Translations under genes and position numbers: made by a program | From: Octopus vulgaris | Taxonomy: Eukaryota | Assembly (NCBI GenBank): GCA_951406725.2 | Contig: OX597835.1 | Location: 1,550,001 to 1,614,000, forward strand | Reading direction: 5' to 3' | DNA: 64,000 nucleotides | Notes under the pieces: model-generated | Databases searched by the model: none | Told to the model about the DNA's origin: nothing | The model's input: the letters and a program-made list of their open reading frames with translations, nothing else | In this document: piece after piece, positions 50,043 through 61,316 of the stretch | How the letters are laid out: every line of letters starts with the position of its first letter | How positions within the stretch are numbered: position 1 is the stretch's first letter

Positions 50043-50144
50043 ATGGATTCTGACTCTCTTGGCAACATCCATGGCAAGGTTGCAAAAGGCAACGAAAATT
50101 TCGGAAGAAAAAATATAAATAATAAACGAGGGGAAATCGAACCG
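50043..50144 (+). CDS. Microexon gene coding exon 1
   Basis: ATG at 50043; donor CCG|gtgagt. Confidence 0.6.
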
Positions 50145-53100
50145 GTGAGTGTGTTAAATAATAAGGCATTAGGACAATACGACTCTCCCCACACACAGCA
50201 TAATGGTAAATTTTATTTTGTAGTATTTCTGTCCGTTTACACTGTAATCACCCTAATTTCGAATATATGTGGGTTTTGGGTATTACAAACTTGAGGTTCC
50301 ACCCCTACTTAGTTTTCCCCATGTATAATGTTCGTGACCCAAGGGAGACCCCTAAGCCACCGGGGAGGATTTTACGGTCAAGTCTTACAACTGAAATTTA
50401 TTGAACAAAAAAGAAAGAAAGAAAAAGGTAACTGGTCCTCAACGGATTGTGGTCTCCCAGCTTATAATCTCGGTAACTATGTCCAACATTAATTTGATAA
50501 ATCATCAATTAAAATAATTGTCAGAAGCTAAGAATATTGCGTTGGCGCTTGTTTTGTTGGATGGATGAAGTTATGAGGTACGAGAAATTCATTAGAAAAA
50601 GCGACGTTCGGAATTTGAGGGAACTCTAAAAACAAACAAATATATAAAAAAATAGGGCTTCAAGCCTGGAACCGTACTTTGAAATCAGCACTATTGCCAG
50701 TTCAGCATTCTTTCGATATAACTCGATAAAATCAAAACACTTCACTGGGTATTTCCGTGTTATGGTTTTAGAAAAGCTATCAGTTTGTATGTTACACAAA
50801 TACTGTGTGACCTGCCAGTCAGGAAAACTAACACTGTGTAACAAAAAAACATTTTTTTTTTCGTCTTTGGTTAGTGTTATTTCTTATTTGTTTCTATCTG
50901 GAAAACAAAGGAAATGACTACTATTCCCTTCAGACTTTGGTTTTGTGATCTGGCCATCGTTGTTTTGAATCTGACCTATTTTCCATTACATTTCAGACAG
51001 ATTCAGTGCTGAGTTGCTGAAGCAGGAATATCATTATAGCAAATATTCTGTTCGGTACTATAGTTTTGCCTGTCAGTTGCTTGACCATAACCACTTGAAC
51101 GTGTCCCTTGGTGGCTGACAATATCTGCACCTCTGGTAACGAGCAGCAGTAGTTGGGAGCATCCATAGCCATGTGTTGAGAAGGATTTTCTGGGATTTGA
51201 ATAAATGTAAGAAAAGCAAAGTTTGAAAGAGATATTAGTCATTTTTTCATACTTTCTGGGGGTAAGCAAATAGGAAATAACAGTTGCTCCCCAAGGACAA
51301 AAGTTGTGTATAATTTAGTGAGGATTTACCTTCATTTTTGCATCCTTTATTCACTTTTCCATACTTTATGGGTCAAGCAGAATATGTGTGTGGCAAATTT
51401 TCTGTGGGCAGATGCCCTTTCTGTGGTCAACGCTCACCTGTCTTTCCATGTTCAGACCTGTTTTACACAATTAAAAACGACTCATTTACAATCATCATAC
51501 AATGTTGAGACGACCCCTGTTTCTGTCCCCCCCCTGTTGTACTGTATCATCTGGCATAAAACCCCCTCCCCTCTCAAAGGATCTTTGTCTTGCCAGTTAC
51601 GTGGTGACCTCACTGGTGCCGGTGTGATGCAAAAAGGTCATCCAGTCCACTCTGTAAGGTTGTTAGTGGTTGGAAGAGCATCAAGCTGTAAAGACTATGC
51701 AAAAACAGACCTTGCCAGTGCTAGTCCGATGGAAAAAGCCCTCGTTCCGAAACAGTCTCTGGCACCTGGTGCAGTCCCCTGGCTTGCCAGCTTCTCTTAA
51801 ACGGTCTAACCTATGTCAGCATGGAAGACGGATGTTAAATAATGATGATGATGATGATGATTTTACGCACACACACATACATTCATGATAGGTTTCTTTC
51901 AGTTTCATCGTCATCATCATTTAACATCCATTGTCCATGCTGGCATGGTTTGGATGGTTTGATCGGGCTGGCATGCTGGAAGGCTGCACCAGGCTCCAGT
52001 CTGATTTGACATGGTTTTCTACGGCTGGATGTCTTTCCTAACGCCAACCACTCCAAGAGTGTAGTGGGTGCTTTTATGTGACACCGGCATGGGTGCCATT
52101 TGTGTGACACTGGTATCTGCCACAACTGCAATTTTGCTCGGCTTCATGGGTCTTCTTCTCAAGCACGAAACAATGCCAAACGTCTTGGTCATTACCTCCA
52201 TGAGGTCCAACACTTGAAAGGAACTCAGCCACTTTGCCTAGAAGACATTTGCCCAAAGTACTTTGCAGTGGGATTGAACTTGAAACCACATGGTTAGGAA
52301 GCAGGCTTCTTAACCATGCCTGTGCCTATCAAAATATTTATTTTGACCTGAAATTGTTCTGACTCTTTGTTATAATTAAATGATGGGTGTGTGTGAACTG
52401 TGATGCTGTATGTTAGAGAGATGTGGGCACTTGAAGTAGAGGATGTATGGAGGTCGGAAAGAAACAAGGTGAGCACTACCTGTTGGGTGTGGAAGGATGA
52501 GGCAGGGATGAGCCGAGAGAGAAACTGAGTTGTGGTGTGCATGGTGAATGACAACTGGTGTGGACAATTAACAGGTATGGATGAAGAGAGGCAGGTGAAG
52601 AAGTGCCAAGCGATTCCTTTGTAAGGATCCATGTGGAAGAGTGAGTTCAAGAAAGACAGAGGCAGAAATGGCAAAAGCTGATCTCAAGAAACCGAACCTT
52701 GCAAAAGAGATGACAAAAGAATATAACTAATGGTTGGATGCTGTGTTGGAGAGGACTGTGGGAAAACAGATGTGAAACTGATAAACGATAGCATTGCAAG
52801 AAATAAATGTTCCTTGCAAGTTTAGTTTTGTCTAAAATAAGTTGAAAGTCAACCCTTTTCTTCCCACATTCCTATATTTGTTTCAATTAATTTTTAAGAA
52901 AAAGAGTTTAAGCTTGAGTTTGCAACAAATTAACAGGAAAGTTTGATAAAAAACTTTTCATTCAGATCACTTTAAACTAAGAAGATTTTATGGTGGAATT
53001 GGATGAGTTTGTATCAAAACAGTTATCAATTCTCTGTTTATCACTTAGAAGTCTGTGGCATTATACCAATGTGAGGAATTATTTAACTCTTTAGCATTTA

Positions 53101-60711: not shown

Positions 60712-60755
<44 letters not shown>

Positions 60756-61316
60756 TGTATATGTATCTATACATGTGTATATATATATGTGTTATATATA
60801 TATATATATACATACATACATACACGTGTGTGTGTGTGTGTATATATATATACATGTATGTATATATGTTTATATATTTGTGTGTATATGTGTGTTCTTA
60901 TATAGTACGTATAGGACTACTTGGTGGTCCCTTTCCCTATCACAGAACTGTGTGAAATCTGTATTGTTGTCTTTGATGTTTGTTTGTATCGGAAGGGTGG
61001 GGAGCTGGCAGAACTGTTGGCATTCTGGGCGAAATGCTTTGCAACATTTCATCCATTGTCACGTTGTGAGTTCAAATTCCGCTGATGTTGACTGTGCCTT
61101 TCATCTTGCCAGGATTGATAAAATAAGGAACCAGTTGAACAGTGGGATCGGTGTAATTGACTTGTCCCTTCCCCTGAAATTGCTGGCCTTGTGTATAACA
61201 CTTGAAACCAATATTTGTTAGTAATTTTACTTGTATATCCTGTTTTAGGTGCTGTACATACACGCAGAACAGCTGCAACAAAAAGATTACGGAAGCAAAA
61301 TCGTTCGAAAAATAAT
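50043..61316 (+). CDS. Uncharacterised multi-exon gene, partial; join(50043-50144,53301-53388,54109-54167,54788-54812,57255-57322,59866-59890,61249-61316); SIM-like motifs, possibly RNF4-like
   Basis: Seven GT-AG exons have compatible phases (0,1,0,1,0,1,0) and give 435 nt / 145 aa with no stop: MDSDSLG...EIEP|RATD...[87 protein letters not shown]. An in-frame TGA lies just upstream of the ATG. Confidence 0.7.
53301..53388 (+). CDS. Microexon gene exon 2
   Basis: cttattcag| ... |gtaagt; 88 nt. Confidence 0.7.
53525..53746. mobile_element. piggyBac-type (TTAA) MITE; related TTAA-CCCT MITEs at ~14296-14500, 24563-24783, 26905-27090, 27438-27646, 53083-53282
   Basis: TTAA-ccctttcgttac ... gtaatgaaaggg-TTAA. 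Confidence 0.75.
54109..54167 (+). CDS. Microexon gene exon 3
   Basis: attgcag| ... TGT|gtaagt; 59 nt. Confidence 0.7.
54788..54812 (+). CDS. Microexon gene exon 4 (25 nt)
   Basis: tttctcatttcag| ... AG|gtaaat. Confidence 0.65.
55015..56190 (+). mobile_element. Decayed RTE LINE 3' portion with 3'UTR and (GAT)n tail
   Basis: '[11 protein letters not shown]...[10 protein letters not shown]...[14 protein letters not shown]', colinear with 17475-18791. Confidence 0.85.
56790..56906 (-). repeat. 30-bp minisatellite, ~4 units
   Basis: Unit catgaggcgcctgtgccagtgagtgattcc. Confidence 0.9.
57255..57322 (+). CDS. Microexon gene exon 5
   Basis: Poly-T tract, then gaag| ... TGT|gtaagt; 68 nt. Confidence 0.7.
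57451..57808. repeat. Head-to-head inverted pair of LINE 3'-tail copies (~170-bp-arm hairpin)
   Basis: (CAT)n-cgtttaacgtccgctttccatgctagcatgggttgga... mirrored by ...tccaacccatgctagcatggaaagcgggcgttaaa-(TGA)n. Confidence 0.85.
58770..59200 (+). repeat. 30-bp minisatellite, ~8 near-perfect units plus degenerate copies
   Basis: Unit gtcactcactggcacaggcgcctcataggc. Confidence 0.92.
59866..59890 (+). CDS. Microexon gene exon 6 (25 nt)
   Basis: tttctcatttcag| ... AG|gtaaat. Confidence 0.65.
60237..60900. repeat. Large (TA)n/(TG)n microsatellite block
   Basis: Direct inspection. Confidence 0.95.
61249..61316 (+). CDS. Microexon gene exon 7
   Basis: tgttttag| ... AAT|gtaagt; 68 nt; basic, NLS-like. 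Confidence 0.7.

Follow-up and report, generated by a model that had tools for sequence, protein, structure and literature searches.

We examined a 64,000-nucleotide stretch of the 2.8-Gb Octopus vulgaris genome (G000:C22:1550001-1614000, hereafter the window), towards whose right end a reading made from the sequence alone had joined seven short exons into a candidate gene for an RNF4-like ubiquitin ligase. These exons very probably form the 5′ half of the annotated octopus RNF4 gene, whose 203-residue product carries a C-terminal C3HC4 RING and is likely a SUMO-targeted ubiquitin ligase. As claimed, the exons have the stated sizes, GT..AG sites at 6/6 introns and a common open frame; their end phases alternate (0, 1, 0, 1, 0, 1, 0), and their 435 nt give 145 stop-free codons containing all of the motifs that had been quoted. 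The gene had been called hidden, which applies only to a view limited to single open reading frames, as it is already known, and its annotation in four octopod species reads RNF4 or RNF4-like. Its description as a microexon gene fits insofar as the exons are short, but only 2/7 of them (3/12 in the whole gene) measure 25 nt or less, and the remainder are short ordinary exons.

A RING exon had been predicted beyond the window. Extending the sequence to the right, we found five additional exons 0.7-6.7 kb past the window, placed by a splice-site scan together with reading by eye, with a C-terminal C3HC4 RING at their end that spans exons 11 and 12 (positions here are extended coordinates, to which 1,550,000 is added to obtain the position on G000:C22). 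A six-frame scan of the next 77 kb for RING cores returned a single plus-strand match (70626) and, on the minus strand, one that is unrelated. Read from ATG 50043, the twelve exons comprise 250 codons; read from ATG 53340, they comprise 203. The shorter model is identical over 203/203 residues to CAI9738732.1 ('E3 ubiquitin-protein ligase RNF4 [Octopus vulgaris]'), a record found with the last exon as query. Though this record is probably the same assembly's own annotation and not independent, the same exons are joined in independent records from O. sinensis (XP_029649688.1, 98% identical), O. bimaculoides (XP_014781410.1, 82%, with a second record, the isoform XP_014781411.1) and Argonauta hians (RNF4-like, 49%).

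Two other accounts of the exon chain were rejected: a chance alignment of splice sites, because exons 2-7 and the five downstream exons match the 203-residue NCBI protein exactly, and a processed pseudogene, given 11 introns, an open frame and a RING that is identical at 59-61 of 61 positions across Octopus species. That the sequencing runs used here are RNA is a guess, made for 17 runs with small shares. All of the 15 joints listed for 49400-58650 (614 more exist) lie between repeats, and 24 loose ends are likewise repeat-derived.

The suggestion that the protein is RNF4-like is supported both by the record names in the four octopods and by comparison with known structures, in which RNF4 RINGs take the first five places among 25 PDB matches (E 3e-16 to 1e-7, with the next family at 1.6e-4) and residues 144-201 align to the RNF4 RING without a gap. 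Six Pfam RING models match residues 143-194, and the seven cysteines and one histidine of the RING (C145, C148, C167, H169, C172, C175, C186 and C189) are invariant across 8 aligned proteins, with 14 residues following the last RING cysteine in the 203-residue protein. The rat RNF4 RING construct ranked third, after two octopod proteins, when a profile of six octopod records was compared with 1.84 billion representatives. The RING lies 20 residues or fewer from the C-terminus in 138 of the 148 profile matches. Ten of these were looked up by name: four are RNF4 or RNF4-like (rat, Tubulanus, Dreissena and Hydra), and the other six are an Elysia RING protein, a copepod transcript, one protein with an unrelated name and three without names. 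Word-indexed protein searches returned octopods and a few weak RINGs only, a full-length vertebrate RNF4 was returned by none of the searches made, and the last exon has a single match in the genome among 15 candidates scored. Furthermore, the helix position of RNF4 S166, at which a Trp marks monomeric RINGs, is occupied by Cys179 rather than Trp; we numbered this position back from RKK 177-179, as in PMC8161396, on the PDB-match alignment.

Several observations nevertheless weigh against the RNF4 assignment. The RKK cluster that follows the last zinc ligand reads RKP, retaining two of three residues, with further Lys just behind. A back-search of the genome with the rat RNF4 RING produced 2 matches among 31 scored, neither of them at this locus, and in whole-RING scores the octopus protein leads narrowly (33.7 versus 33.1 and 28.3 bits). 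A RING tree of 24 rows and 62 columns leaves 15/21 inner branches open. Names in NCBI records are often assigned automatically. Together, the missed back-search, the narrow lead, the open tree and automatic naming would fit a different small ligase with a C-terminal RING, to which annotation pipelines gave the name RNF4 by nearest match. We consider such a misnaming very improbable, as RNF4 RINGs surpass the other PDB matches by at least three orders of magnitude and align gap-free, and neither of the two competing loci encodes a C-terminal RING, theirs lying near the start of open frames. A profile of 11 RNF4-like RINGs also separates the octopus protein (70 bits) from these loci (44 and 37 bits), with a bias, since all 11 had been found with the octopod profile. 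The back-search works exon by exon, and the octopus RNF4 RING is split by an intron. The two competing loci look like RING1/Sce and TRAIP, respectively; their RING genes lie at L017 1166-2410 (+) and L018 969-1205 (+), the first with long poly-Q and poly-H tracts. Because of the open tree and the missed back-search, the case for orthology with RNF4 is built on best hits, architecture and single copy, and not on the tree. When residues 138-203 were modelled as a two-copy complex with zinc, the scores of 0.25 and 0.26 fell short of the 0.32 mark, and we counted this neither for nor against RNF4.

Exon 1 is probably untranslated or optional, and translation most likely starts in exon 2. The 145-codon frame had been read as protein throughout; it is open, but its 47 N-terminal codons, supplied by exon 1 and the first part of exon 2, probably lie outside the main reading frame. 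None of the six annotated proteins that we aligned contains exon 1, the 244-residue isoform CAI9738731.1 bypasses it by splicing 49288 directly to 53301, and the Argonauta protein begins at a Met matching 53376. In the sole contig of run X9 (organism B, depth 54.9/54.9), a base is missing at 50088, so that the frame would close after 24 codons; runs X1 and X10 have no depth at 50088 and are neutral on this loss. These same points speak against a coding exon 1, in which case the main protein would be the 250-residue form from ATG 50043. That ATG is in frame and stop-free up to the RING, and the bin containing the exon (50018-50326) is covered in 4/4 runs at depths of 32.7, 20.9, 8.6 and 18.4, compared with 0 and about 0-1 in its flanks. 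We regard the longer protein, which would be compatible with the RNF4 assignment, as unlikely. Upstream, at 49150-49288 (+), a TATA-like sequence near 49157 precedes a stretch that runs up to a GTAAGT donor at 49289 and has no read coverage in the runs used; this may be the true non-coding first exon.

Features of the octopus RNF4 locus. Positions are those of the window or, where marked, extended coordinates.
Feature	Position	Strand	Remarks
First coding exon of 244-residue isoform CAI9738731.1	44925..44983	+	from annotation
Alternative upstream exon of CAI9738731.1	49264..49288	+	joins exon 2
Exon 1 (sequence-only reading)	50043..50144	+	102 nt; possible acceptor AG ends at 50041
Exon 2	53301..53388	+	88 nt; annotated start ATG 53340; second Met 53376, the Argonauta start
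Exon 3, unit A	54109..54167	+	59 nt; degenerate SIMb-like IYDLS and acidic run; TIIC
Exon 4, unit A	54788..54812	+	25 nt; duplicate of exon 6
Exon 5	57255..57322	+	68 nt; SIM-like motifs including EESIIIC
Exon 6, unit B	59866..59890	+	25 nt; DTPRR, basic region begins
Exon 7	61249..61316	+	68 nt; Arg/Lys-rich tract
Intron 7	61317..64000, past window edge	+	
Exon 8	64690-64711 (extended)	+	22 nt
Exon 9	65438-65472 (extended)	+	35 nt; sole strict SIMa, PILISDE
Exon 10	68557-68606 (extended)	+	50 nt; linker
Exon 11	69384-69444 (extended)	+	61 nt; first CxxC of RING
Exon 12	70590-70739 (extended)	+	remaining C3HC4 RING, 14-residue tail, stop
AATAAA	70798 and 70843 (extended)	+	

The protein has an acidic, motif-bearing N-terminal segment with a basic tract behind it. 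The segment had been read as a tandem array of SUMO-interacting motifs (SIMs), for which we used the SIMa, SIMb and SIMr patterns as printed in PMC3395311. The motifs are present and conserved in Argonauta, but they are degenerate, and 0/4 of those quoted in the sequence-only reading fit a strict SIMa, SIMb or SIMr. One exact SIMa (PILISDE, residues 107-113, exon 9) lies outside the window and behind the basic tract. Comparing O. vulgaris with Argonauta, the four quoted motifs are identical at 20/34 residues, versus 23/85 in the remainder of residues 17-142 (Fisher p 0.0013; a single comparison of residues that are not independent, with motifs picked before the Argonauta protein was seen). The second motif is lost in Argonauta (2/7 residues identical), and PILISDE is kept in full (7/7). 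With O. bimaculoides, the corresponding contrast (27/34 versus 61/85) is not significant (p 0.27). In an alignment with five other proteins drawn from the profile matches, D37, D49 and P70 are invariant, LHDMS aligns to the canonical VDLT/IDMT SIM of invertebrate RNF4-like proteins, and IIICDTPRR aligns to their last SIM and the start of the arginine-rich motif. The basic tract contains PRR at 70-72, and 11 of residues 69-97 are K or R, with no D or E; an arginine-rich motif with PRR, placed directly behind the last clustered SIM as it is here, is given as a feature of RNF4 in PMC8161396 and PMC5875560. Cys is among the preferred SIM core residues according to PMC12751080, and with Cys permitted in the core, EESIIIC fits SIMr in 2/5 octopod proteins, under a looser pattern that was chosen post hoc.

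The same segment also supplies evidence against a SUMO-reading RNF4. A strict SIMa is found in 2/5 octopod proteins (O. vulgaris and Argonauta), the remaining two species deviating from it by one residue, and the five octopod proteins contain no strict SIMb or SIMr. Our first motif census, which used its own definition and missed PILISDE, yielded 2 clusters, not above shuffles, of which 597/2000 reached that count. The basic tract is weakly kept in Argonauta (2/11). Among C-terminal-RING matches of at least 150 residues, 63/116 have an xIDLT-type motif and 24 have two or more, compared with 0/5 octopod proteins; to judge from these sequences, canonical xIDLT SIMs are eroded in octopods. This absence and the census result might indicate an RNF4 by descent whose SIMs have decayed and which works largely independently of SUMO, for instance by engaging, via its basic tract, phosphorylated substrates of the kind that the arginine-rich motif recognizes according to PMC5875560. 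We find a SUMO-independent role of this kind improbable, because the motifs are selectively kept between Octopus and Argonauta and occupy the canonical SIM positions of other invertebrate RNF4-like proteins, because O. vulgaris and Argonauta retain the exact SIMa, and because Cys counts as a preferred core residue.

Part of the motif array appears to have arisen within the gene, as exons 3-4 and 5-6 are, by sequence likeness, a tandem duplicate. Exons 4 and 6, each 25 nt long, share an 18-base acceptor flank that occurs nowhere else in the window, and 42/58 positions agree around the exon, a score reached by 0/1000 shuffles. The donor ends of exons 3 and 5 are likewise similar (22/32, reached by 1/1000 shuffles); for five control pairs, between 64 and 648 of 1000 shuffles equalled the score. 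The introns show no other likeness besides two matches inside interspersed-repeat sequence. Exons 3 and 4 together form an 84-nt in-frame cassette flanked by two phase-1 introns, and the 174-residue O. bimaculoides isoform XP_014781411.1 lacks exactly these exons (32 residues in that species), leaving one hybrid codon at the join. This isoform is an annotation-based sign, in one species, that exons 3-4 can be skipped. Exons 8 and 9 (57 nt; L002 3791-4573 = 64690-65472) are also a frame-preserving pair, which carries the strict SIMa, and each motif module therefore sits in a symmetric exon pair.

We tentatively raise the idea, doubtful as it is, that octopods rebuilt the SUMO-reading arm of RNF4: VDLT-type SIMs would have eroded, the duplicated frame-preserving pair would have added Cys-containing, Ser/Thr-flanked SIM-like motifs, and skipping of the 84-nt cassette would set the number of SIMs and hence the preferred length of SUMO chains. 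If true, the two natural isoforms would offer a natural test of the idea, put forward in PMC3901395, that SIM number and spacing determine chain-length preference. Among the titles listed in searches of mostly non-subscription literature, none concerned cephalopod RNF4 or the skipping of RNF4 SIM exons. The SIM erosion and the skippable duplicated cassette may therefore be undescribed, though minor, features.

By analogy with mammalian RNF4 (PMC8161396, PMC3901395), several weak SIM-like motifs in the disordered N-terminus would together provide the avidity for binding poly- or multi-SUMOylated nuclear proteins, and phosphorylation of the flanking Ser/Thr residues would perhaps strengthen this binding. 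The basic tract may aid recognition of phosphorylated substrates or nuclear import, like the arginine-rich motif of RNF4 (PMC5875560 among the sources), and a RING dimer would activate E2~ubiquitin and ubiquitylate the substrate. On the mammalian model, SUMO binding, dimerisation and ubiquitylation activity are likely properties of the octopus protein.

Searching the genome for a SUMO partner with PF11976 gave 14 matches, made up of 11 tandem units in one frame and three others. The eleven ubiquitin-like units, each 228 nt long, share a single 902-codon frame at G000:C3:117301610-117304102 (L010-L013) and are probably polyubiquitin. The three other matches we take to be ubiquitin-like rather than SUMO. 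At G000:C8:44684188-44684388 (L014 489-689, minus strand) lies a diverged ubiquitin-like copy that lacks introns; behind it come a short second start and a stop.

Elsewhere in the window, the sequence-only reading had placed two ubiquitin-system genes, PSMD4 and RNF103, beside the exon chain. The former is confirmed by an exon of PSMD4/Rpn10 at 9845-9970 (+) that encodes a vWA domain and finds its closest PDB counterparts in 26S proteasome subunit 4 (E 5e-15). The label RNF103 was checked only as far as a RING-bearing open reading frame at 31024-32748 (-), a 574-codon frame in a long terminal exon with a C-terminal RING. This gene stands head to head with RNF4, and its upstream exons are probably located at about 34480-34790 and 42730-42950 (-). 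Three ubiquitin-system genes thus fall within 70 kb, a proximity from which we draw no inference. The RNF4 introns contain two 30-bp minisatellites, at 56790-56905 (+) in intron 4 (3.9 copies) and at 58770-59094 in intron 5 (10.9 copies), with units that look like mutual reverse complements. Several decayed copies, all of the same interspersed retroelement-like 3′ end, occur at 18084-18812 (-), 55109-55420 (+), 36262-36672 (+) and 4292-4636 (+), with very high read depth where they are covered.

Because the gene is publicly annotated as RNF4 or RNF4-like in four octopods, finding it here is of little significance in itself. What the sequence-only reading did achieve was to foretell correctly both a spliced gene and a RING outside the window.

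Compared with known systems, the octopod RNF4 records (CAI9738732.1, CAI9738731.1, XP_029649688.1, XP_014781410.1, XP_014781411.1 and the Argonauta hians RNF4-like protein) represent the same gene and differ from the model of the sequence-only reading in that none includes exon 1. Within this group, Argonauta keeps IHDLDDDD and is missing the TIICD motif of unit A. RNF111/Arkadia is similar in having SIMs and a C-terminal RING, with a weaker PDB match (E about 3e-4), but it is a protein of 994 residues with an M domain and a monomeric RING bearing a Trp, as described in PMC8161396, none of which applies to the octopus protein. We rejected membership of that family given the length of 203-250 residues, the lack of a long linker and the Cys at the Trp position. 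Drosophila Degringolade resembles the octopus protein in its C-terminal RING, by description only (PMC5875560).

Among other invertebrates, the RNF4-like proteins of Dreissena, Tubulanus and Hydra and an unnamed Elysia RING protein have a C-terminal RING of the same pattern. The SIM positions of the Dreissena, Tubulanus and Elysia proteins line up with those of octopus, although these proteins keep tandem cores of the xIDLT/xVDLT type that the octopods lack. Similarly, two VDLT SIMs carry most of the binding in human RNF4 according to PMC3901395, whereas their octopus counterparts are only IYDLS and LHDMS. The octopus protein further departs from mammalian RNF4 (PDB 4AP4, 2XEU, 3NG2, 4PPE) in reading RKP for RKK, in motifs added by exon-pair duplication and in a strict SIMa behind the basic tract. 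The two are nevertheless similar in size and share the succession of an acidic motif cluster, a basic tract with PRR and a terminal C3HC4 RING, as well as equal RING spacing and a short hydrophobic tail (PMC8161396, PMC5875560).

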